Part shown: positions 1 to 64,000 of the stretch, one piece after another
Layout: each line of letters begins with the position of its first letter
Numbering within the stretch: position 1 is the first letter of the stretch
Assembly (NCBI GenBank): GCA_965262725.1
Contig: OZ253555.1
Coordinates: forward strand, 3,296,001 to 3,360,000
Direction: 5' to 3'
Length of the DNA: 64,000 nt
Source: Dehalococcoidia bacterium
Lineage (GTDB): Bacteria; Chloroflexota; Dehalococcoidia; UBA2979
The notes under the pieces: model-generated
What the model was told of the DNA's origin: nothing
Database searches by the model: none
Seen by the model: the letters and a program-made list of their open reading frames with translations, nothing else
Position numbers and translations under genes: made by a program

Positions 1-251
1 AGCCGCGCTCGCGCGACTACGGGCGATACCGCTCCCGACCTGACGCCCGCTCACAGCGCCGAACCGGAGCCGAAGCTCGCGCCAGCATGCCCGCGCACGC
101 CTCGCGCACCCTCAGCGCCCCCGAGCGGCGCTGAGCGACGACTCCTGGCTCCGGCCCGCCCCCGGCGCCGCCCGGCGAACGCCGACACACCCGTCGAACT
201 CTCCGGCAGCCCGGCACCCCGCCTCGTCAAGCTTCGTTCGGTGGATTCGAG
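1..251 (+). mobile_element. Right end of an IS1380-family element (copy 1, truncated by window edge; intact, intron-free right terminal repeat)
   Basis: Nearly identical to ~8079-8332 plus 11804-11813. Encodes the transposase C-terminus AALARLRAIPLPT* (stop 41-43) and ends ...CTTCGTTCGGTGGATTCGAG. Confidence 0.9.
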
Positions 252-5054: not shown

Positions 5055-6683
5055 ATGATCCGCCCAGAGGCCGCCGACTACCAGGGCCACCGCGTGGTGG
5101 GGGCGCGGCTGGCGGAGCCGGTGCTCGACGATGAGATCGGCTTCCACTCCTCCGAGCGCGAGCGCCTGCTGCTTCCCCACTATCACGCGCTCGACCGCGC
5201 GCAGCTCGTCATGCTGGTCGAGCGCGGGCTCGTCACGCGTACTGACGGAGTGAGCATGGCGGCGGGGCTCCGCCGCTTCGTCGAGCCCGGGATCGAGGCG
5301 GGCTACATCTCAGTAGGCGCGGGAATGCACTCTGGCGAGGTCGCCCTCATCGCAGAGCTCGGCGAGGAGGTGGGCGGGCGCCTCGAGATCGGCCGCGCCT
5401 CCGGCGAAGTCGTGCAGGTGGCGTGGCGCCGGATGGAGGCCGCGGCGCTGCGCTCGCTGCTCCATACGCTCGCGGAGGCGCGCGCAGCAATCCTCGAGGT
5501 GGCGGCGGCGCACACCTCGAGCGTGATGCCTGGCTACACGCACAGCCAGCACGCACAGGTCGTGACGCTCGCGCACGTGCTGCTGGCGTGGGAGGCGGGG
5601 CTCGCCCGCTGCTTCGCACGGGGCGCGGAGACGCACGCCCGCGTCAACTGGAGCGCGGCCGGGAGCGGGAACATGAGCGGCAGCGACGCCCCGCTCGATC
5701 GGGCGCGCACGGCCGAGCTGCTCGGATTCGACGGACCGCTCGACAGTACGTACGACGCGATCCAGCACAACGATCACGCGATCGAGTGCCTCGGCCTGCT
5801 CGCCACGCTCGGATCTCTCGTCACGCGCTGGGCGCAGGACCTCTATCTCTACGGCTCGCAGGAGGTCGGTGTCCTTGAGCTACCCGACCGCTTCTGCGGG
5901 ACGAGCGCCCTCATGCCGCAGAAGAAGAACCCCCGCCTGCTGGAGTACCTGCAGGGCGCGTCGGCCTCGGCGCTCGGCGGCCTGGCCACGGCGCTGATGG
6001 TGGAGAAGACACCCTCGGGCGGCGCGATCGTCGAGCGCACCCTCTTCGTCGAGGCGCTCGCTCGGGGCTTTCGCGAGGCGGAACGCAATCTCGGATGGCT
6101 CGCCCTGGCCGTCTCGGAGTCGCAGTGGGACCTGGAGCGGATGCGCTCGCTCGCGCGCACGCACGGGGCGACGTCGAGCACGCTCGCCGCCGCGCTCGCC
6201 CGCGAACGCGGGTGGGCGTGGCGGACCGCGCACGAGGTCGTCGGCACCGCCGTGCGCATCGCGAGCGAGCGCGGCGTCGCGGCCGGCGACCTCACCCCCG
6301 CCCTCCTCGACGAGGCGTCGGAGCTCTACTGCGGGCAGCCGGCGGGGCTGAGCGCCGAGAGCGTCGCGAGCGCCCTCGATCCGCTGGAGGCGGTGAGGCG
6401 CCACGCCCTGCTCGGAGGACCGGCGCCGGAGGAGAGCATCCGGCTGCTCCCGGAGCGCCGCGCCGCGCTGGCCCGCGACCGGGAACGCCTCTCTCAGCTC
6501 ACCGCTCACGCGGAGTCGGCCGCACGGACGCTCGAGGCCACCTTCGATCGGGTCGCGCGGGGGGAGCCGTCCGGCCGCGCGAAGGGGCGCGCGCGCGCCA
6601 CGGGAGTCGCACACCCGGTACCCGCCGGGGCGTCGGACAAGAGCGCCGACGGCCGGCCAACGCCGCGCCCCGACCCCCCTTAA
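5055..6683 (+). CDS. Argininosuccinate lyase-like C-N lyase (fumarase/aspartase superfamily)
   Basis: MPGYTHSQHAQ, GTSALMPQKKNP signature and WRTAHEVVG. The stop TAA lies in the IS1380 target duplication. Confidence 0.8.
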   Translation: MIRPEAADYQGHRVVGARLAEPVLDDEIGFHSSERERLLLPHYHALDRAQLVMLVERGLVTRTDGVSMAAGLRRFVEPGIEAGYISVGAGMHSGEVALIAELGEEVGGRLEIGRASGEVVQVAWRRMEAAALRSLLHTLAEARAAILEVAAAHTSSVMPGYTHSQHAQVVTLAHVLLAWEAGLARCFARGAETHARVNWSAAGSGNMSGSDAPLDRARTAELLGFDGPLDSTYDAIQHNDHAIECLGLLATLGSLVTRWAQDLYLYGSQEVGVLELPDRFCGTSALMPQKKNPRLLEYLQGASASALGGLATALMVEKTPSGGAIVERTLFVEALARGFREAERNLGWLALAVSESQWDLERMRSLARTHGATSSTLAAALARERGWAWRTAHEVVGTAVRIASERGVAAGDLTPALLDEASELYCGQPAGLSAESVASALDPLEAVRRHALLGGPAPEESIRLLPERRAALARDRERLSQLTAHAESAARTLEATFDRVARGEPSGRAKGRARATGVAHPVPAGASDKSADGRPTPRPDPP

Positions 6684-6794
6684 CCCTGATCCACCGAAGA
6701 AGAGTGCGCGAGCGGCTGGGGTTGGGTGCTCCGCTGTAGCTGGGACAATGGTTTTTGACCGAATCACGTCACAGCCACAGGGAGCACCCATTCG

Positions 6795-8120
6795 ATGTTA
6801 GCAACGAGCAGCCCCGACCGGATACACATCGCCTTCGACGACGACCGCCTCGTGGACCACGCGGGCCTGCTGCTCCCGGCCACGCTCGCTGGCCGGCTCG
6901 GCCTCCGTGAACTGGCAGACGCCCACCTCGACCTCGGTGACGCAGCGGGGCGGGCGAACGTCGGCGACAAGCTGATGACTCTCATCGCCTCGGCGCTCGC
7001 GGGCGGCGACTGCATCGATGACGCCGATGCCATGCGCTCAGGCGGCGCCGGGCGCGTGCTCGGCTGCACGGTGAAGGCGCCGTCCACCCTCGGGACGTTC
7101 CTGCGCAGCTTCCGCTGGGGCCACGTCCGCCAGCTCGACCGCGTCAGCCGCGAGTTGCTGGCCCGCAGTTGGGCGGCCGGGGCGGGACCCGGCGCGGCAC
7201 CGTTCACGATCGACCTCGACTCGACGCTCTGCGAGACCTACGGACTGGCGAAAGAGGGCGCCCGGCACCACGGCTACACGGGCGTGCGCGGCTATCACCC
7301 GCTGCTCGCGGTGGCGGCCGGGACGGGTGAGGTGCTGATGGCCCGGCTGCGCGGGGGCCGTGCCAACACCGCTCGGGGGGCCGCCCACTTCCTGCGTGAG
7401 ACGGTGGGCCGGGTGCGCGACGCCGGGGCGAGCGGGCAGCTCACGGTGCGCGCCGACAGCGGCTTCTACAACCACGCTGTCGTCGCCGTCTGTCGCAAGC
7501 AGGATGTCCGCTTCTCCATCACCATTCGGCAGCAGCCGAACGTACGCCGGCTGATCGAGGCGATACCGGAAGAGGACTGGACGCCGATCCCGTACTGGCA
7601 GGACGACGGCGCCGCTGTCGCCGAGACGACCTACACGCCGTTCCAGCACACGAGGGACGCCACCGCGGTGCGGCTCATCGTGCGGCGCGTCAAGCCGACG
7701 CCCGGCTCACAGCTCGCGCTCTTCGTGAACTACAGTTACCACGCCTTCATCACCGATCGCGCGGGGGAGATGATGGAGCTGGAGGCCGACCATCGCCGTC
7801 ACGCCGAGATCGAGAACGCGATCCGCGACCTCAAGTACGGCGTCGGGTTGAACCATCTCCCCTCGGGCCGCTTCGCCGCGAACGCGGCGTGGCTCGCGGT
7901 GCAGGTGATCGCGCACAACCTCGCCCGCTGGACGGCACGCCTCGGGCTCGGCGAGGGGATCGTGACGACCAGGACGCTCAGGCGGCGCTACTTCTCTCTC
8001 GCCGGACGGCTCACCCACTCTGCCCGGCGGTGGACCCTGCACCTCCCGAAGCGCTGGCCCTGGGCCGGGCAGCTGGCAGCCGCGCTCGCGCGACTACGGG
8101 CGATACCGCTCCCGACCTGA
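6795..8120 (+). CDS. IS1380-family DDE transposase
   Basis: 441 aa; TIDLDST, GYHPLLA, VRADSGFY, HRRHAEIENAIRDLKYG, LPSGRFAANAAW. Confidence 0.93.
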   Translation: MLATSSPDRIHIAFDDDRLVDHAGLLLPATLAGRLGLRELADAHLDLGDAAGRANVGDKLMTLIASALAGGDCIDDADAMRSGGAGRVLGCTVKAPSTLGTFLRSFRWGHVRQLDRVSRELLARSWAAGAGPGAAPFTIDLDSTLCETYGLAKEGARHHGYTGVRGYHPLLAVAAGTGEVLMARLRGGRANTARGAAHFLRETVGRVRDAGASGQLTVRADSGFYNHAVVAVCRKQDVRFSITIRQQPNVRRLIEAIPEEDWTPIPYWQDDGAAVAETTYTPFQHTRDATAVRLIVRRVKPTPGSQLALFVNYSYHAFITDRAGEMMELEADHRRHAEIENAIRDLKYGVGLNHLPSGRFAANAAWLAVQVIAHNLARWTARLGLGEGIVTTRTLRRRYFSLAGRLTHSARRWTLHLPKRWPWAGQLAAALARLRAIPLPT

Positions 8121-8404
8121 CGCCCGCTCACAGCGCCGAACCGGAGCCGAAGCTCGCGCCAGCATGCCCGCCCACGCCTCGCGCACCCTCGCGCCCGCAC
8201 CCTCAGCGCCCCCGAGCGGTGCTGAGCGACGGCTCCTGGCTCCGGCCCGCCCCCGGCGCCGCCCGGCGAACGCCGACACACCCGTCGAACTCTCCGGCAG
8301 CCCGGCACCCCGCCTCGTCAAGCTTCGTTCGGTTCGCGGTAGGGATGCCGGTTGCCCGGCACCCCCCGCACAGATCCGGACGTGCCCTCTCGGGCATCCG
8401 GCTC

Positions 8405-9733
8405 CTACCTCAAGTGCGTGACGGCAAATCGCTCCGCAGGCCACGGGTGAAGGATGGAGATTCGGGGCCAGTGTCCCTGGCACAGGGCAAGGATGCGCTC
8501 CCACGTGAAACGGTCGCGCTGCGACCGCCGTCGGAGAACGCGCAGCCAGAGCCGCTTCACGAAACGGACAAACCGCGTGAGCGCCGGCGAGCTGGTCGGC
8601 ACCGCGTAGTAGCCAAGCCACCCACGCAGTACCCGCCCCAGCCACTGCCCCGTCGTCACGGGGTTGTCGTGCATGCGCCGCCACAACTCGGCCTTGATGA
8701 CCTTCAGCGTCCGGCGCATCCGCTTCGCAACGGGCTTGCGCCCCAGCCCGAATCTCCCGTCGCGTCGGGTCCGGCAGTAGTGCGTCATGCCGAGAAAGTC
8801 GAACGTTTCCGGTCGGCCCTCCCCGCGCTTCCGCCTGTTCGCCAGCGCGAACCTGCCGAACTCAAGTAGACGGGTCTTCTCCGGGTGCAGCTCCAGCCCG
8901 TAGGCCGCGAACCGCTCCCGGAGTGCCTCCATGAACCGCACCGCATCGCTGCGGTGCTGGAACCCCAGGACGAAGTCATCGGCATACCGCACGATGTACG
9001 CCTCGCCCCGGACCTCCCGCGGTCGCCACTCGCGCGCAAACCAGTCGTCGAGCACGTTGTGCAGGTACACGTTCGCAAGCAGCGGCGATATCGGCGCCCC
9101 CTGCGGCATCCCCCGCACGAAATCGACTTCCGGCTCCGCGTCCATGACGCCGACGCTCAGCCACTTTCGTATCAGGCGCAACACCCGCTGGTCCCCGATG
9201 CGCATCTCCAGAAACGACATCAGCCGCCCCCGGTCGATGCTGCCGAAGAACTCCCGGATGTCCACCTCGACAATCCAGCTGACCTTGCGCCGTTCGACCG
9301 CGTAGGCCAGTGCGTCCAGCGCGTCATGCGCCGAACGCCCCGGCCTGAAGCCATGCGAGAAGCCGTAGTAGCCCGACTCGTAAATCGGGTTCAAAAGATT
9401 GTCCACCACCGCCCGCTGAACGATCTTGTCCTCCAGCGAGACGATACCGAGCGGCCGTATTCCCCCGTCCGGCTTGGGTATCTCTACCCGCCTGACGGGC
9501 TTCGCCCGGTACGCTCCACGGTGTACGCGGCCATGCAGGTCGAGCAATCGCTCGTCCAGCCCGTCCCCGTATTCTCGCCACCTCACCCCGTCCACGCCCG
9601 GAGCCGCATCCCGCTTCAACGCGAGATACGCCTCCCGCAGCGCCTCCGGCGTGATGTGGTGCAAGAGCGCGGTGAGTTTCTCTCCCGGCTTCCGTTCCAC
9701 GAACTGCCGTATCCTCTCCGCTCCGGGTGACAC
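8405..9733 (-). CDS. ltrA: Group II intron reverse transcriptase/maturase
   Basis: AAPGVDG, IPKPDGGIRPLGI, GFRPGRSAHDAL, GMPQGAPISPLLANVYLH, RYADD, FDFLG. Ends ILHPWP with no HNH domain. Confidence 0.95.
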   Translation of the reverse strand: MSPGAERIRQFVERKPGEKLTALLHHITPEALREAYLALKRDAAPGVDGVRWREYGDGLDERLLDLHGRVHRGAYRAKPVRRVEIPKPDGGIRPLGIVSLEDKIVQRAVVDNLLNPIYESGYYGFSHGFRPGRSAHDALDALAYAVERRKVSWIVEVDIREFFGSIDRGRLMSFLEMRIGDQRVLRLIRKWLSVGVMDAEPEVDFVRGMPQGAPISPLLANVYLHNVLDDWFAREWRPREVRGEAYIVRYADDFVLGFQHRSDAVRFMEALRERFAAYGLELHPEKTRLLEFGRFALANRRKRGEGRPETFDFLGMTHYCRTRRDGRFGLGRKPVAKRMRRTLKVIKAELWRRMHDNPVTTGQWLGRVLRGWLGYYAVPTSSPALTRFVRFVKRLWLRVLRRRSQRDRFTWERILALCQGHWPRISILHPWPAERFAVTHLR

Positions 9734-9849
9734 CGCACCCCGACTCTGCGTCCGGACCGTGCCGGTGCTTTGAGGATTCCTCTCGGTTGGGGCCCTTTGC
9801 TCCAGCGACTCCGCCGGGGCTCGCGCCCCCTTCTATGAGGGTCGTCTGA

Positions 9850-10170
9850 TCCGCAAGGCCGACGTGGCGGCCTTCTGCACCGTTCTACCGATCGCGCCTC
9901 CCGTCCGCAGCCCTGTGGTGGTTGTCGGTGCCGATGCGAGTGGTGCCGCCGTCTTGTCCCCGGGACGTTGTGGTGACCGTGCTTCTATTCGCACTCGTCG
10001 AGGGGCCGCTCCGGGCCCGGTGCATGATGATCAGCCTGTCTCCAGGGTGTGGGCGCTGCCATCTTGTTCCCGTCCTCGTTGGGACCAGGGGGTTCCGCAG
10101 TCGCCCGCGTGTCGGCATCTCTCGTATCCTCCGAAGCCCACCGGCCGCCCGGTCGCCTCGCTCCTCGCGT
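9850..10170 (-). ncRNA. Candidate bridge/seek RNA in the IS1111 3' non-coding end
   Basis: ~345-bp non-coding end downstream of the recombinase. It contains CTTGTTC (10063-10069; core plus target flank) and CTTCTAT (9982-9988; core plus element end). RNA limits are approximate. Confidence 0.6.
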
Positions 10171-10178
10171 GCTGTCTG

Positions 10179-11270
10179 CTACGCCGCCTCGGCCGCGCGC
10201 GCGTGGCGCAACGGCTCGTAGACCTCCCCGCTCTTCCAGAGCGCAAGCATCAGCACCGCCAGTCGCCTCGCGACCGCGACGACGGCACGCTTCTTCGCAT
10301 TGCCGGCCCCCGACTCCGCGTAACGCAGCCCCCACCTGCGGAGGTCGCTGTCGGGGCCGAAGGGGCCCAGGATGTAGTGCGCGGCCTGGTTCAGCACCCG
10401 GCGCAGCGCCACGTCCCCTTCCTTCGTGATCCGCAGCTGGGGCTGCCGATCACCGGAATCGCGGCTCCGGGGCACCAGCCCCAGGTAGGGCCCCACCTCC
10501 CTGTTCTTGGGGAAGCGGGCCGGGTCCTCGATGGTGAGGATGAAGGTGAGCGAGGTGATCGGGCCGACGCCCACGATCTGCCGCAGCGCGCCGGTCTCCG
10601 CGTAGCGCTCGCACATCGCGGCGAGCTTCTTGTCGGCCTGGCGGATCTCCCCGGTCAGCTGCTCGATCTGGTGGAGCACCGGCAGCAGCGCCGGGCCCAG
10701 CTCCTCGGGGATGTGCTCTCTGACCGCGCGGTGGAAGGCCGGCGCCGTGCAGCCCGGAAGCGCCGCGCCCCACGCCTTCACCGCGCCCCGGACGTGGTTG
10801 ATGAACATCGTGCGCGCCCGGACCAGCGCCTCGCGGCTGCGGAGCACCTGGAGGTCCGCCTGCGCCATGGCGCTTCGGTGCCGGATGGGGAAGAGGAGCG
10901 CCGGGTCGAATCGGCCGAGCCGTGCGAGGTGCTCGGCATCGGAGCGGTCGGTCTTGCGCTGGCTGCGCGCGATCAGCCTGACCTGCCTCGGGTTGGCGAC
11001 GATCACGTCGTGACCGAGCTCCGCGAACATCCGGCTCAGCCACGGGGAACGCGGCCCCACCTCCATCACCACCCGGGCGCCCTGCAGTGGGGTGAGCGCC
11101 CGCGTGAGCGCCGCGGTCGTGGTGCGGACTCGCTCCTCCCGCACGATCTCCCCGTCGCCACCGAGGACGCAGAGGTGGCTGTAGCGGTCGCTGACGTCGA
11201 TGCCGACAGTCACGAGCTCCGCATCCCCCACCTTCCTGCTCTCTGTGACATCTGATGTACGCTGTGCCAC
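10179..11270 (-). CDS. IS110-family DEDD recombinase/transposase
   Basis: VTVGIDVS, VMEVG, KTDRSDA, YLGLVPRSRDSG, AVVAVARRLA. GTG 11270 follows an AGGTAGGAG RBS. Confidence 0.92.
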   Translation of the reverse strand: MAQRTSDVTESRKVGDAELVTVGIDVSDRYSHLCVLGGDGEIVREERVRTTTAALTRALTPLQGARVVMEVGPRSPWLSRMFAELGHDVIVANPRQVRLIARSQRKTDRSDAEHLARLGRFDPALLFPIRHRSAMAQADLQVLRSREALVRARTMFINHVRGAVKAWGAALPGCTAPAFHRAVREHIPEELGPALLPVLHQIEQLTGEIRQADKKLAAMCERYAETGALRQIVGVGPITSLTFILTIEDPARFPKNREVGPYLGLVPRSRDSGDRQPQLRITKEGDVALRRVLNQAAHYILGPFGPDSDLRRWGLRYAESGAGNAKKRAVVAVARRLAVLMLALWKSGEVYEPLRHARAAEAA

Positions 11271-11834
11271 GGTCGGTCTCCTACCTCTCTCGGCTCGCCT
11301 GAGCCGTTCTCCTGGGCCACCACGTGAGCCCGTGCTTGGAGGGGAAGTATCCCCTCTGAGGAGGGGACCGACCCTCATGTCATCTTGTTCGCCGCCTTCA
11401 TCGCTCGTACGGCCCCATCAGACTGCTGCGCATCGTTCATCATCGGCTACGGTTTACGTCCCTTCCCGACGCGGTCCCGGCGTACGACTCGTCGGGACAA
11501 CGCGCAGCTCTCCCAAGTCCCGGCGATAGACGTGTGTGCGTGCATGGGGTCTTCGACACCGTGGGGCCCGACCACGACTCGCCAGTAGCGCCGTCGCCGG
11601 TATTGCCTTCGACCAATCCAAGAGCCTCGGCACCCCAAATGGCCCTTTCGATGCTCATTAGCCCCGCCCGCACACCCCGCTGCCGACGCTTCACAAGCCG
11701 CCTCGCGACGACCCGCGCACGGCTCGCGGAATGACATGAGTGGCTAGCTCTTTGCCATAGAGGACTTCCACCTCCTGCCTACTCGCCAGTTAGCCTGGCG
11801 CTCTGGATTCGAGCTTAAGGGCGGGGACGCCCGA

Positions 11835-11843
11835 TGCTAGACT
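11835..11843 (+). promoter_or_regulatory. Extended -10-like box, probably a leaderless purEK transcript
   Basis: TGcTAGACT followed by 6 nt and the purE ATG; no Shine-Dalgarno. Confidence 0.4.
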
Positions 11844-11849
11844 GCGGTC

Positions 11850-12341
11850 ATGCAACCCCTCGCCGGCATCATCATGGGCTCCTCCTCCGACTGGGAGACG
11901 ATGCGCCTCACCGCCGACGTGCTCGAGGAGCTCGGCGTGCCGCACGAGGTACGCGTGATCTCCGCGCACCGGACGCCGGACCTCCTCTTCGAGTACGCGT
12001 CCACCGCCCGGGAGCGTGGGCTCCAGGTGATCGTGGCCGGCGCCGGGGGCGCGGCGCACCTGCCGGGAATGACCGCCGCCAAGACGGCCCTGCCCGTGAT
12101 CGGCGTGCCGGTCGAGTCGAAGGCGCTGAGCGGACTCGACTCGCTGCTCTCGATCGTCCAGATGCCGGCAGGCGTACCGGTGGCGACGGTGGCGATCGGC
12201 GCGGCCGGGGCCCGCAACGCCGGCCTGCTCGCCGCAGCGATCCTCGCCCCGGGCCGCCCCGCCATCGCCGAGGCGCTCGATAGCTACCGCACGCGTCAGA
12301 CCGACGGCGTCCTCGCGCAGCCGGATCCCCGCCAGGGCTGA
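11850..12341 (+). CDS. purE: N5-carboxyaminoimidazole ribonucleotide mutase
   Basis: [43 protein letters not shown]. Confidence 0.97.
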
Positions 12342-12344
12342 GGC

Positions 12345-13484
12345 GTGCGGATCGGCGTAGTCGGGGCCGGCCAGCTCGGGCGCATGCTCGTGCTGGCCGG
12401 TCGGCCGCTCGGCATCGACTTCCTGATGTACGACCCGGCGCCCGACGCCTCGGGCGGGCGCGTCGCGCCGCTCGTCGTCGGGGACTTCGACGACCGGCGC
12501 GCGCTCGAGCGCTTCGCCTCAGAGGCGGACGTGGTGACCTTCGACTGGGAGAACGTCCCCGCCAACGCCCTGAGAACCCTCCGCGGCCGCGCCGCCGTGC
12601 GGCCGCCGGCGCGTGCGCTCGCGCTCTCGCAGGACAGGCTCGCCGAGAAACGGATCTTCCGGCGGCTCGGCATCGCCACGGCGCCGTTCGCGGCCGTGAA
12701 CTCGCTTCAGGGGCTGCGGCGCGCCGTTGGCCGCGTCGGCCTGCCGGGCGTGCTGAAGACGCGACGGCTCGGCTACGACGGGAAGGGCCAGGCGTGGCTG
12801 AAGCACCCCCGCGACATCGGGACGGCCTACGAGGTCCTGGGCGGGCGGCCGCTCATCTACGAGGCGCGCGTCCCCTTCACGCGCGAGCTCTCGCTGCTCT
12901 CGGTGCGGGGTGCCGACGGCGCGATCGCCCACTACCCGCTCGCCGAGAACCGCCACGAGCGGGGGATCCTCAGGCTCACCACCGCCCCCTACGTCGACCG
13001 CGCGCTGCAGGCGGAGGCGGAGGCGTACCTGGAGTCGCTGCTCCGGCGCCTGCGCTACGTCGGCGTGCTGGGCGTCGAGTTCTTCGAGGCGGAGGGGCGT
13101 CTCGTCGCGAACGAGACGGCCGCGCGCGTGCACAACTCCGGCCACTGGACGATCGAGGGCTCGGTGACGAGCCAGTTCGAGAACCACATCCGGGCCCTCG
13201 CGGGGCTGCCCCTCGGACGCACCGACGCGCGGGGCTACGCAGCGATGGTCAACTTCATCGGCCGCCTCCCCGACGCCGCGGAGGTGCTCGCGGTGCCGGG
13301 TGCCCACTTCCACGACTACGAGAAAACCCCGCGCCCCGGCCGCAAGGTCGGCCACGCCACCCTCGTCTCGCGGAGCGCCCGCGAGCGCGACCGCGCGGCC
13401 AGACGCCTGCTCGAGCTGGGACGGCGCGCGGCCGGTGAGGAGCTGCCCCCCGCCGGGCGCGGCGGGAGGCCCCGGCGTCAGTAG
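12345..13484 (+). CDS. purK: N5-carboxyaminoimidazole ribonucleotide synthase
   Basis: GAGQLGRML, GYDGKGQ, RVHNSGHWT, SQFENH, RKVGH; directly after purE. Confidence 0.95.
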   Translation: MRIGVVGAGQLGRMLVLAGRPLGIDFLMYDPAPDASGGRVAPLVVGDFDDRRALERFASEADVVTFDWENVPANALRTLRGRAAVRPPARALALSQDRLAEKRIFRRLGIATAPFAAVNSLQGLRRAVGRVGLPGVLKTRRLGYDGKGQAWLKHPRDIGTAYEVLGGRPLIYEARVPFTRELSLLSVRGADGAIAHYPLAENRHERGILRLTTAPYVDRALQAEAEAYLESLLRRLRYVGVLGVEFFEAEGRLVANETAARVHNSGHWTIEGSVTSQFENHIRALAGLPLGRTDARGYAAMVNFIGRLPDAAEVLAVPGAHFHDYEKTPRPGRKVGHATLVSRSARERDRAARRLLELGRRAAGEELPPAGRGGRPRRQ

Positions 13485-61963: not shown

Positions 61964-63601
61964 CCCGGATCCACCGGTGACCGGTGTTGAGCGTGCGGAG
62001 GAGCGCGAAGCGGCCGTCGTGTGAGGTGCGGGAGCCGTTTGTGACTCCCGGAGGAGTGCTCGGCGCTGTCCGGGGCGTGTGATCAGCAGGGGAGACCGGC
62101 GCGGAGGCGATTGCGGACAGGCTGGCGCGCGGCGCTGGTCCGCGAGCGGCGAGGGGGAGCGGCGTCAGGTCGGGAGCGGGAGCGCGCGCAGCCGTGCGAG
62201 GGCATCGGTGAAGTGACCGGCCCATGGCCAGCGCGCCGGCAGATGGAGCGTGAACCGACGAGCAGAGCGGGTCAGCCGCCCGACGAGAGCGAAGAGCCGC
62301 CGCCGGAGCGTCCGGGTGGTGACGATGCGCTCGCCGAGCCCGAGCCGCGCCGTCCAGCGAGCGAGATTGTGGGCGATCACCTGGACCGCGAGCCAGGCGC
62401 CGTTGGCGGCGAAGCGGCCGGACGGCAGGTGATTGAGCCCCACGCCGTACTTCAGGTCGCGGATCGCGTTCTCGACCTCGGCGTGGCGGCGATGGTCGGC
62501 CTCCAGTTCGAGCGTCTCTCCGTCGCGGTCGGTGATGAAGGCGTGGTAGCTATACGTCGCGAAGAGAGCGAGCTGCGAACCAGGCGTCGGCCGCACGCGC
62601 CGGACGATGAGCCGCACCGGGACGGCGTCCGGCGCGTGTGCGAACGGCGTGTAGGTCGTCTCTGAGACATCGGCGCCGCCCTCCAGCCAGTACGGGATCG
62701 GCGTCCACTCCTGTTCGGGAATCGCCTCGATGAGCTTCCGCAGCTTCGGATGCTGGCGGATCGTGACCGAGAAGCGGACATCCATCTCGCGGCAGGCAGC
62801 GACCACCGCGCGGGAGTAGAAGCCGCTGTCGGCGCGCACCGTGAGTTGCCCGTTCGCTCCGGCATCGCGGACTCGACCCACCGTCTCCTGTAGGAAGTGG
62901 GCGGCGCCCCGGTCGCTGTACGCACGACCCCCGCGCAGCCGGGCCATTAGCACGTCACCCGTCCCGGCCGCCACCGCGAGCAGCGGGTGATAGCCGCGCG
63001 CACCGGTGTAGCCGGGGCGCTGCGCCCCCTCCTTGGCGAAGCCGTAGGTCTCGCACACCGTCGAATCGAGGTCGATGGTGAATGGCGCCTCGCCGGGTCC
63101 GGCCCCGGCGGCCCAGGCGCGGGCAAGCAGCGCGCGACTGACGCGGTCGAGCTGGCGGACGTGGCCCCAGCGGAAACTGCGTAGGAAGGTGCCGAGCGTG
63201 GATGGCGCCTTGACGGTGCATCCGAGAACGCGCTCTGTGCCGCCGGCGCGCAACGCATCGGCATCGTCGATGCAGTCGCCGCCCGCTAGCACGGAGGCGA
63301 CGAGTGTCGCGACCTTGTCTCCCGCGTTCGCCCTGCCCTGTGCGTCGCCGAGGTCGAGATGACGGTCGACCAGCTCCCGCAGGCCGAGACGTTCGGCGAG
63401 CGTGGCCGGCAGGAGCAGACCCGCGTGGGCCACCAGGCGGTCGTCGTCGAAGGCGATCGAGAGCCGGGCGGGGCTGCTCGGTGATAGCATCGAATGGGTG
63501 CTCCCTGTTTCCGGTGGATCGTTCGCTTCACGACCATTCTCCCAGATTCAGAGGAGCACCCAATTCCCTCTCTTCGCGACTGCATCCACGCTCTCCTTCG
63601 G
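61964..63601 (-). mobile_element. IS1380-family element (copy 3, divergent isoform), left terminal repeat split by a group II intron
   Basis: Right end CCCGGATCCACCG at 61964. Upstream end CTCTCCTTCGG (to 63601) resembles the inner part of the copy-2 left end and is followed directly by intron sequence. Confidence 0.88.
62165..63490 (-). CDS. IS1380-family DDE transposase
   Basis: 441 aa, colinear with the 6795-8120 protein but with many substitutions. Confidence 0.93.
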   Translation of the reverse strand: MLSPSSPARLSIAFDDDRLVAHAGLLLPATLAERLGLRELVDRHLDLGDAQGRANAGDKVATLVASVLAGGDCIDDADALRAGGTERVLGCTVKAPSTLGTFLRSFRWGHVRQLDRVSRALLARAWAAGAGPGEAPFTIDLDSTVCETYGFAKEGAQRPGYTGARGYHPLLAVAAGTGDVLMARLRGGRAYSDRGAAHFLQETVGRVRDAGANGQLTVRADSGFYSRAVVAACREMDVRFSVTIRQHPKLRKLIEAIPEQEWTPIPYWLEGGADVSETTYTPFAHAPDAVPVRLIVRRVRPTPGSQLALFATYSYHAFITDRDGETLELEADHRRHAEVENAIRDLKYGVGLNHLPSGRFAANGAWLAVQVIAHNLARWTARLGLGERIVTTRTLRRRLFALVGRLTRSARRFTLHLPARWPWAGHFTDALARLRALPLPT

Positions 63602-64000
63602 TTCGCGGTAGGGATGCCGGTTGCCCGGCACCCCCCGCACAGATCCGGACGTGCCCTCTCGGGCATCCGGCTCCTACCTCAAGTGCGTGACGGCAAATCG
63701 CTCCGCAGGCCACGGGTGAAGGATGGAGATTCGGGGCCAGTGTCCCTGGCACAGGGCAAGGATGCGCTCCCACGTGAAACGGTCGCGCTGCGACCGCCGT
63801 CGGAGAACGCGCAGCCAGAGCCGCTTCACGAAACGGACAAACCGCGTGAGCGCCGGCGAGCTGGTCGGCACCGCGTAGTAGCCAAGCCACCCACGCAGTA
63901 CCCGCCCCAGCCACTGCCCCGTCGTCACGGGGTTGTCGTGCATGCGCCGCCACAACTCGGCCTTGATGACCTTCAGCGTCCGGCGCATCCGCTTCGCAAC
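63602..64000 (-). mobile_element. Group II intron copy 2 (3' end: RT C-terminus, domains V-VI; truncated by window edge)
   Basis: Matches ~8333-8730 with no difference seen by eye; ORF 63674-63988 equals the C-terminus of the 8405-9733 protein. Confidence 0.92.

Follow-up and report, generated by a model that had tools for sequence, protein, structure and literature searches.

The genome of the Dehalococcoidia bacterium studied here is assembled as a single 3.67-Mb contig (OZ253555.1), and the window that we analyzed is the 64,000-nucleotide stretch occupying 3.296-3.360 Mb of it. Within this window, a group II intron splits one terminal inverted repeat of an insertion sequence (IS) of the IS1380 family and is itself split by an IS of the IS110 family. 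The IS1380-family element, intron included, spans 6684-11813 and has the ends CCCTGATCCACCGAAG... (left) and CTCGAATCCACCGAAC... (right); its terminal inverted repeats, CCCTGATCCACCGAA (left) and CTCGAATCCACCGAA (right), are identical at positions 1, 3 and 6-15. Its transposase matched NCBIfam NF033539 (transpos_IS1380) with 338 bits (cut-off 180) and Pfam DDE_Tnp_1_4 (PF13701, 1.5e-58), and 5-bp target duplications were seen at four IS1380 copies (CTTAA, CCAAG, TGTAT and CTAAA). In contigs of three public runs from three studies (X5, X6 and X7), base 6678 is joined straight to base 11814, with 5135 bases skipped and a 5-letter overlap. Thus, the chromosomal site is empty in other populations, and the 10 nt that lie past the intron are IS sequence. 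Among the joints listed for this locus, none leaves out the intron alone.

Comparison of empty and occupied sites placed the insert at 11803-8333 of the minus strand, where it interrupts the right repeat after IS position 10. The insert is 3471 nt long, and its limits could shift by 1 nt, as there is an A at either side. An initial annotation of the window had read the empty site as CTCGAATCCA^CCGAA at 251-237 of the minus strand and the occupied site as CTCGAATCCA-insert-CCGAA; both are present letter for letter, with the 10 nt at 11813-11804 followed by GAGCGCC.... The intron does lie in the range that had been assigned to it (8321..11813), but this range is too wide, since it takes in the 10-nt 5' exon and 12 nt of the 3' exon (8332-8321). 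The nested IS110 element, which makes up 1554 of the 3471 inserted bases, had been overlooked.

Domain I and domains V-VI of the ribozyme were located with Rfam models (Table 1). Seven pairs of the domain I consensus fold obtained with RNAalifold carry two-sided changes, the candidate GAGCC and CUAC-CGC motifs of domains V-VI can be aligned with the consensus, and the A of CUAC in domain VI is aligned to the consensus branch-site position (Rfam); the RF00029 match spans 8406-8332 and so includes the first base of the 3' exon. Intact copies of the intron are 1917 nt long and specify an intron-encoded protein (IEP), a reverse transcriptase (RT)/maturase of 494 amino acids that matched NCBIfam TIGR04416 with 325.6 bits (cut-off 300). 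No endonuclease domain was found in the IEP by a Pfam search at E<=1, the sole matches being RVT_1, RdRP_1 and, weakly, GIIM, and the protein ends ~30 amino acids past the GIIM match. The intron lineages without an endonuclease, with no D/En after domain X, are classes A, C, D, E and F/g1-g4 (PMC3552965). The closest plasmid-borne relatives of the IEP are 'ltrA' genes of proteobacteria, which are ~490 amino acids long and 52-55% identical.

The initial annotation had proposed that the motif TGGATT, which indeed stands at 11620-11615 directly before GGTCGAAGGCAA, is the first exon-binding site (EBS1) of the intron. Two independent analyses place this motif in a loop and not in a stem: in the Rfam RF02005 alignment, CUUGGAUU forms the 8-nt loop of a 4-bp hairpin (GGCU/GGUC), and RNAalifold, applied independently of the Rfam model to 12 diverse relatives in six genomes, returned the same hairpin, with its four pairs in 12/12 sequences and the eight loop columns unpaired. 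EBS1 covaries across lineages with the last bases of the 5' exon, the intron-binding site IBS1: UGGAUU occurs with AAUCCA or GAUCCA, UGGUAU with AUGCCA, CACCAC with GUGGUG, CCCAUU with AAUGGG, CUCGCA with UGCGGG, and GUGGAU with AUCCAC. Cognate EBS1 and IBS1 sequences formed a mean of 5.06 of 6 pairs (16 distinct combinations, 8 perfect), compared to 2.77 for non-cognate ones (n=144, 4 perfect). This covariation supports the EBS1/IBS1 pairing as originally put forward, including a G-U wobble with GATCCA, which was correctly located at 6688-6693 and 61968-61973 (the latter in the tip CCCGGATCCA at window position 61964, genome position 3357964).

Candidates for EBS2 and EBS3, which had remained to be located, also covary with the exons. 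The candidate EBS2, (A)GGGC, pairs with GCCC(U) at -11..-8(-7) when the target is a left end and with GCUC when it is a right end, and its loop reads GAUGC, GUGGC and GGGUU where the exons read GCAUC, GCCGU and AGCCC, respectively. This assignment appears less firm than that of EBS1, given its four to five pairs and a register that shifts by 1 nt between lineages. The candidate EBS3, the base after GGUGUC, changes between lineages together with the base that opens the 3' exon, giving the combinations G-C, U-A and A-U. To have EBS3 as a separate element is a IIB-type arrangement, and EBS2 together with a separate EBS3 counts against class IIC.

Table 1. Features of the locus and related features elsewhere in the window (window coordinates).
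Feature	Position	Strand	Evidence or remark
Right end of another IS1380 copy, running off the window; repeat unoccupied	1..251	+	Empty site, minus strand
Left copy of target-site duplication CTTAA (5 bp)	6679..6683	+	Flank comparison
IS1380-family element, left tip (CCCTGATCCA...) to inner half of right inverted repeat	6684..8332	+	BLAST against genome copies, census of ends
IS1380-family transposase gene, 441 amino acids	6795..8120	+	NF033539, DDE_Tnp_1_4
Group II intron, 1917 nt plus 1554 nt of nested IS110; starts GAGCG, ends CCUACCGCGAA	8333..11803	-	Empty versus occupied sites, intact 1917-nt copy, Rfam
Domains V-VI	8333..8406	-	RF00029 Intron_gpII
Downstream part of RT/maturase (IEP) gene, parted from its first 20 codons	8405..9829	-	Comparison with intact copies
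IS110-family element, 1554 bp, after intron nt 420, in the IEP gene	9830..11383	-	IS110-free copy; 1-nt boundary ambiguity
IS110-family transposase open reading frame	10179..11378	-	NF033542; family match begins at residue 57
First 20 codons of IEP gene (MMNDAQQ...), parted from the rest by IS110	11384..11443	-	Translation of intact copy, IS110 junction
Domain I core	11547..11768	-	RF02005 group-II-D1D4-6, 170 bits, gathering score 49
Candidate EBS3 (G), pairing with C at +1 (8332)	11554..11554	-	Covariation with first 3'-exon base
EBS1 (UGGAUU), in the 8-nt loop	11615..11620	-	Rfam structure line, RNAalifold, covariation with 5' exons
Candidate EBS2 (AGGGC), internal loop	11642..11646	-	Columns unpaired in consensus fold; covariation in 4 lineages; occupancy
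Outer 10 nt of IS1380 right inverted repeat (CTCGAATCCA), the 5' exon	11804..11813	-	IBS1 is 11809-11804
Right copy of target-site duplication CTTAA	11814..11818	+	Base 11814 is position -11 (IBS2)
Diverged IS1380 copy, ~81% DNA identity	61964..63601	-	End 61964 empty, end 63601 occupied
Second, intact intron copy, 3' 399 nt up to the end of the window	63602..64000	-	Genome copy c3361518

The initial annotation had raised the possibility that most copies of the intron lie outside IS1380 ends. The first 15 nt of the intron occur 14 times in the genome, each time with a different flank, and all 14 of these 5' junctions follow an IS1380-type tip (CCCTGATCCA at nine, CTCGAATCCA at three, and CCCGGATCCA and CCCGAATCCA at one each); no full copy was found elsewhere. 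The insertion point (IS positions 10/11) is constant, as is the direction of reading, from the tip inward. IS1380 sequence continues past the inner repeat at 12 of the 14 junctions, and at one of the 14 the copy is truncated by a later IS1380 insertion. The genome contains 179 ATCCACCG sites, 27 of them in IS1380-type ends, and none of the other 152 is occupied, so the association between the intron and IS1380 ends is more than chance. Matches to the pattern of tip plus inner repeat that are unoccupied number 30, three of them tipped GATGCA; two GATGCA tips belong to verified IS copies, both unoccupied, while the third match was not verified as an IS end. Occupied tips make up 9/17 of the left type and 3/17 of the right type, and the left tip of the IS1380 element at 6684 is itself an empty target, with the site at 6693/6694. 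At 1.91-2.03 Mb, a region rich in IS copies, the nesting is also reversed: there, an IS1380 insertion cuts an intron copy after ~387 nt (L044:1506-1893; ...GCAGTCTGAT|CTCGAATCCA).

Taken together, we consider it probable (about 0.9) that the insert is an endonuclease-less bacterial group II intron that carries an open reading frame, has a IIB-like domain I, and retrohomes into the terminal inverted repeats of IS1380-family elements. The three pairings together cover positions -11 to +1, and the intron RNA accordingly reads a 12-nt stretch made up of one flanking base and the outermost 11 nt of the repeat (IS positions 1-11): EBS1 (UGGAUU) pairs with -6..-1 (AAUCCA or GAUCCA), the candidate EBS2 ((A)GGGC) with -11..-8(-7), and the candidate EBS3 (G) with the C at +1. 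Since the left and right repeats share ATCCACCGA, each IS presents one intron site per DNA strand. The route would be reverse splicing followed by reverse transcription, and, since the IEP lacks an endonuclease domain, priming would presumably draw on nascent lagging-strand DNA, by analogy with the introns RmInt1 and RmInt2. Parting the outer 10 bp from the rest of the repeat should cripple that IS end and hinder its transposition.

The 12 full-length intron copies vary at 11 of 1917 aligned columns (at least 99.4% identity), and seven of them are uninterrupted 1917-nt introns with an open 494-codon IEP frame. The host IS copies, entered at left as well as right ends, are 81-100% identical among themselves and fall into groups that are ~100%, 96-97% and 81% identical to the IS at 6684-11813. 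The presence of a young intron in old, diverged IS targets indicates repeated, independent insertion rather than passive copying with the IS. These data agree with the earlier suggestion that targeting the repeat gives two sites per IS across divergent isoforms, a principle already published for RmInt2 and its target ISRm17. We also considered that the intron might have entered one IS1380 element once and then multiplied passively with the composite IS, without any site-specific homing. Such hitch-hiking would account for every intron copy lying inside or adjoining IS1380 sequence and for the composite acting as one 5135-bp insertion relative to other populations. However, it fits poorly with near-identical introns in hosts as diverged as those described above or with the occupation of both left and right repeats, and a repeat split 10 bp from its tip should hinder rather than help transposition. 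We therefore regard hitch-hiking as very improbable.

A second alternative is that no RNA intermediate is involved and that gene conversion or homologous recombination among IS copies carries the intron, as DNA, from one IS end to another. The 3' side offers up to 1.6 kb of IS homology for such exchange, and one diverged IS copy has a tip of the common donor type. Hybrid junctions, in which an IS tip is joined to the 5' end of the intron and an unrelated 3' exon follows, occur in two sister genomes (G004 and G077) and, for a related lineage, in a third (G078), indicating that recombination between intron copies does happen. On the 5' side, however, only 10 nt of IS sequence and a unique flank are available as homology, targets merely 81% identical have been invaded, and occupancy tracks the EBS2-pairing base and fork orientation, neither of which would be expected of gene conversion. 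Specifically, base -11 is G in 13/14 occupied compared to 15/30 empty ends (Fisher p=0.007), 10/14 occupied compared to 7/30 empty ends carry GCCC in full (p=0.006), and 9/12 occupied compared to 8/23 empty sites are co-oriented with the replication fork (p=0.035). For the last comparison, fork direction was assigned from an origin set near 0.48 Mb (dnaA at 478 kb, skew minimum), and 2.30-2.55 Mb was left out as the terminus. These figures agree with what EBS2 pairing and use of the lagging-strand template would predict, and DNA-level spread appears very unlikely. That the association between intron and IS is an artefact of assembly or repeat collapse in a metagenome-assembled genome (MAG), as a repeat-rich genome with a skew plateau at 1.8-2.55 Mb suggestive of rearrangement might lead one to suspect, is scarcely credible given that the 14 junctions have 14 different flanks and that an independent assembly of run X1 crosses both the flank/tip/intron junction (11788-12400) and the intron/IS110 junction.

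The replication landmarks call for two remarks. Cumulative GC skew is flat at 0-0.45 Mb as well as at 1.8-2.55 Mb, and many IS and intron copies cluster in these regions. The dnaA gene at 478 kb lies on the minus strand, and the DnaA-domain search that found it also matched dozens of IS21-type helper ATPase genes.

Several observations weigh against retrohoming into IS1380 ends. The support for splicing and for mobility is comparative in both cases, and RNA runs contained no more than 4-6% of the sampled sequence words. The usual ends of group II introns are 5' GUGYG and 3' AY, unlike the GAGCG (11799-11803) and GAA (8333-8335) found here; these ends are common to the 12 nearly identical copies, and sister lineages start with GUGCG or GAACG. 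The domain V-VI match to RF00029 scored 39.9 bits (E 1.4e-5), slightly short of the gathering score (40). Pairing is poor in three of the 16 cognate combinations of EBS1 and IBS1 (1, 3 and 4 of 6); the worst of them, whose 5' part is common with another lineage, looks like a recombinant. The junction at genome position 2475993 has only a 21-nt sequence resembling the inverted repeat, without an IS1380 body or transposase nearby, and a separate, 5'-truncated intron fragment of 589 nt has a non-IS 3' exon. The occupancy statistics use low counts of events that may not all be independent, origin and terminus are placed approximately, the skew is flat at 1.8-2.55 Mb, and the orientation bias of the occupied sites alone is not significant when compared to 50% (binomial p=0.15). 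Five sister genomes hold 3, 16, 24, 5 and 56 empty IS1380-type ends and at most one junction each (three with one, two with none), and the single junctions of G004 and G077, the two that were read, have a non-IS1380 3' exon. Because of these 3' exons, the two junctions look like recombinants between intron copies.

Related introns were found in 10 of 99 genomes of the same taxonomic family, the source genome (G000) included, and expansion was seen in the source genome only: the junction pattern occurs 14 times there, once in each of three others (G004, G077 and G079) and nowhere else. A search of the species collection contigs with the IEP returned 24 loci, all in Dehalococcoidia MAGs and in the same set of genomes. 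In the lineage with EBS1 GUGGAU, present in two genomes, the 5' exon ends in CCCTGATCCAC, so that this lineage splits the same IS tip one base deeper; in G078, a copy of it is likewise followed by a 3' exon that is not IS sequence. Introns with an IS1380 tip as 5' exon and an unrelated 3' exon were seen at three sister-genome loci (L031, L032 and L034). One of these 3' exons is the target of another intron lineage, and another precedes a gene whose translation resembles an IS21-type transposase. The mixed exons suggest that recombination among intron copies has rearranged these three introns.

The same IS1380 family is also the homing target of a second intron lineage, which has the EBS1 CCCAUU and ~80% identity in domain I. 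Its site is a different one, 103 nt from the left tip and antisense to the transposase gene; in the element studied here this site is empty (6786/6787). Occupied copies lie at positions 1921199, 1951737 and 2020542 of the source genome (L044 near 3449). The 5' exon of this lineage ends in ...CATCGAATGGG, and its candidate EBS3 (A) would pair with the T at +1.

The diverged IS1380 copy at 61964-63601 carries the tip CCCTGATCCA at its intron-occupied end, with its CTAAA duplication intact. Two other copies of the same IS1380 subfamily have CCCGGATGCA at this end and are unoccupied. The CCCTGATCCA tip could reflect co-conversion of the 5' exon during homing, or CCCGGATGCA could be a tip variant that escapes the intron.

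The IS110-family element breaks the IEP gene at codon ~21. Its transposase matched NCBIfam NF033542 ('IS110 family RNA-guided transposase') with 216.6 bits (cut-off 140), as well as Pfam DEDD_Tnp_IS110 and Transposase_20, and assembled contigs of public runs join base 9829 to base 11384, skipping the 1554 bases. Since the insertion splits the IEP gene, the intron copy at 8333-11803 is unable to make its own protein and is non-autonomous. The genome contains four full-length IS110 copies, each of them within an intron and with one and the same junction, ...GAACAAG|ATGACATG ... CATAGAAG|GGGGCG; the remaining matches are fragments with other flanks. Three of the carriers belong to the main intron lineage, in which they represent at least two haplotypes, and the fourth is a diverged intron. 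The same junction is present in a 76%-identical intron of another genome (L033:538-4015). This distribution points to site-specific insertion into the IEP gene on more than one occasion, not in a single event, and IS110 looks like a specialized parasite of the intron.

When we searched for bridge-RNA guides, the non-coding ends of the IS110 element and the intron target were found to have three 7-mers in common, which is approximately the number expected by chance according to our estimate. Among the matches listed by searches of the literature on IS110, group II introns and bridge RNA, none combined all three subjects and no title described IS110 elements that target group II introns. Two further intron copies (genome c1521916 and c1875230) carry other insertions in the RT gene, one of ~2.2 kb with a 20-nt loss and the other of 1332 bp with a 5-nt overlap.

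One tentative and rather doubtful extension of these observations is a three-tier chain of parasites in which each tier is aimed at the one below by nucleic-acid recognition, with IS110 directed at a conserved site in the RT gene of the intron and the intron at the IS1380 end repeat, each disabling its target, and with the IS perhaps escaping through tip variants such as GATGCA. If so, the intron would act as a brake on IS1380 expansion and IS110 as a brake on the intron. The repeated presence of IS110 at one site of a retroelement gene may also help in studying how RNA-guided recombinases choose their natural targets.

Among known systems, RmInt1 in ISRm2011-2 (class D / IIB3) resembles the intron described here in lacking an endonuclease, in having an IS as its natural homing site, and in recognizing the target through EBS1, EBS2 and EBS3; RmInt1 reverse-splices into the lagging-strand template. 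It reportedly has one site per IS, which lies inside the element and not in a terminal repeat, and differs from the intron here in its high target specificity. Introns that each target one defined position in one kind of IS are described as following a widely used strategy, which provides many sites in non-essential DNA and helps with horizontal transfer (PMC3522654). The enterobacterial introns E.c.I1, E.c.I3, E.c.I4, E.c.I9 and c-Ha.de.I1 (ISPlu15-like) likewise home into particular ISs (Leclercq and Cordaux 2012, PMC3522654). Unlike the sites described here, theirs are specific IS positions and not both terminal repeats, and the term 'inverted repeat' has 0 occurrences in that text.

The closest parallel is RmInt2 of Sinorhizobium meliloti GR4, all copies of which lie in the inverted repeats of ISRm17 according to Martinez-Rodriguez et al. 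2014 (PMC4615759) and a review (PMC5894124). ISRm17 presents two sites per IS on opposite replication strands, which secures one site on the lagging-strand template (PMC4615759), and retrohoming of RmInt2 with a lagging-strand bias was demonstrated by plasmid assay, with a four-pair EBS2/IBS2 interaction tolerated (PMC4615759, PMC5894124). The intron here and RmInt2 have in common copies in IS repeats, an IEP without an endonuclease domain, a relaxed EBS2/IBS2 pairing, a lagging-strand bias and a recent burst of near-identical copies. RmInt2 is a class D intron, 72% identical to RmInt1, in an alphaproteobacterial host, and ISRm17 is an ISNCY-family element (PMC10194956); the present intron, in contrast, occupies IS1380 elements, has its relatives in Dehalococcoidia MAGs, encodes a 494-amino-acid IEP and starts with GAGCG, and the evidence for its mobility is comparative where that for RmInt2 includes the plasmid assay.

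Among the matches listed by our literature searches, none beyond RmInt2/ISRm17 reported a group II intron in an IS1380 element or in the repeats of an IS. The central inference of the initial annotation has already been published, for a different class of intron and a different family of IS. The locus described here is a new example of this published strategy, with a different intron lineage, a different IS family and Dehalococcoidia relatives, and not a new class of mechanism. Its 14 occupied and 30 empty ends form a natural data set that links occupancy to a single EBS2-pairing flanking base and to fork direction. Terminal repeats are under more constraint than any other part of an IS, are paired on opposite strands and lie in dispensable DNA. 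Homing into them thus looks like a recurrent solution for endonuclease-less introns, and a strategy known so far from RmInt2/ISRm17 in a rhizobium appears to have arisen again.

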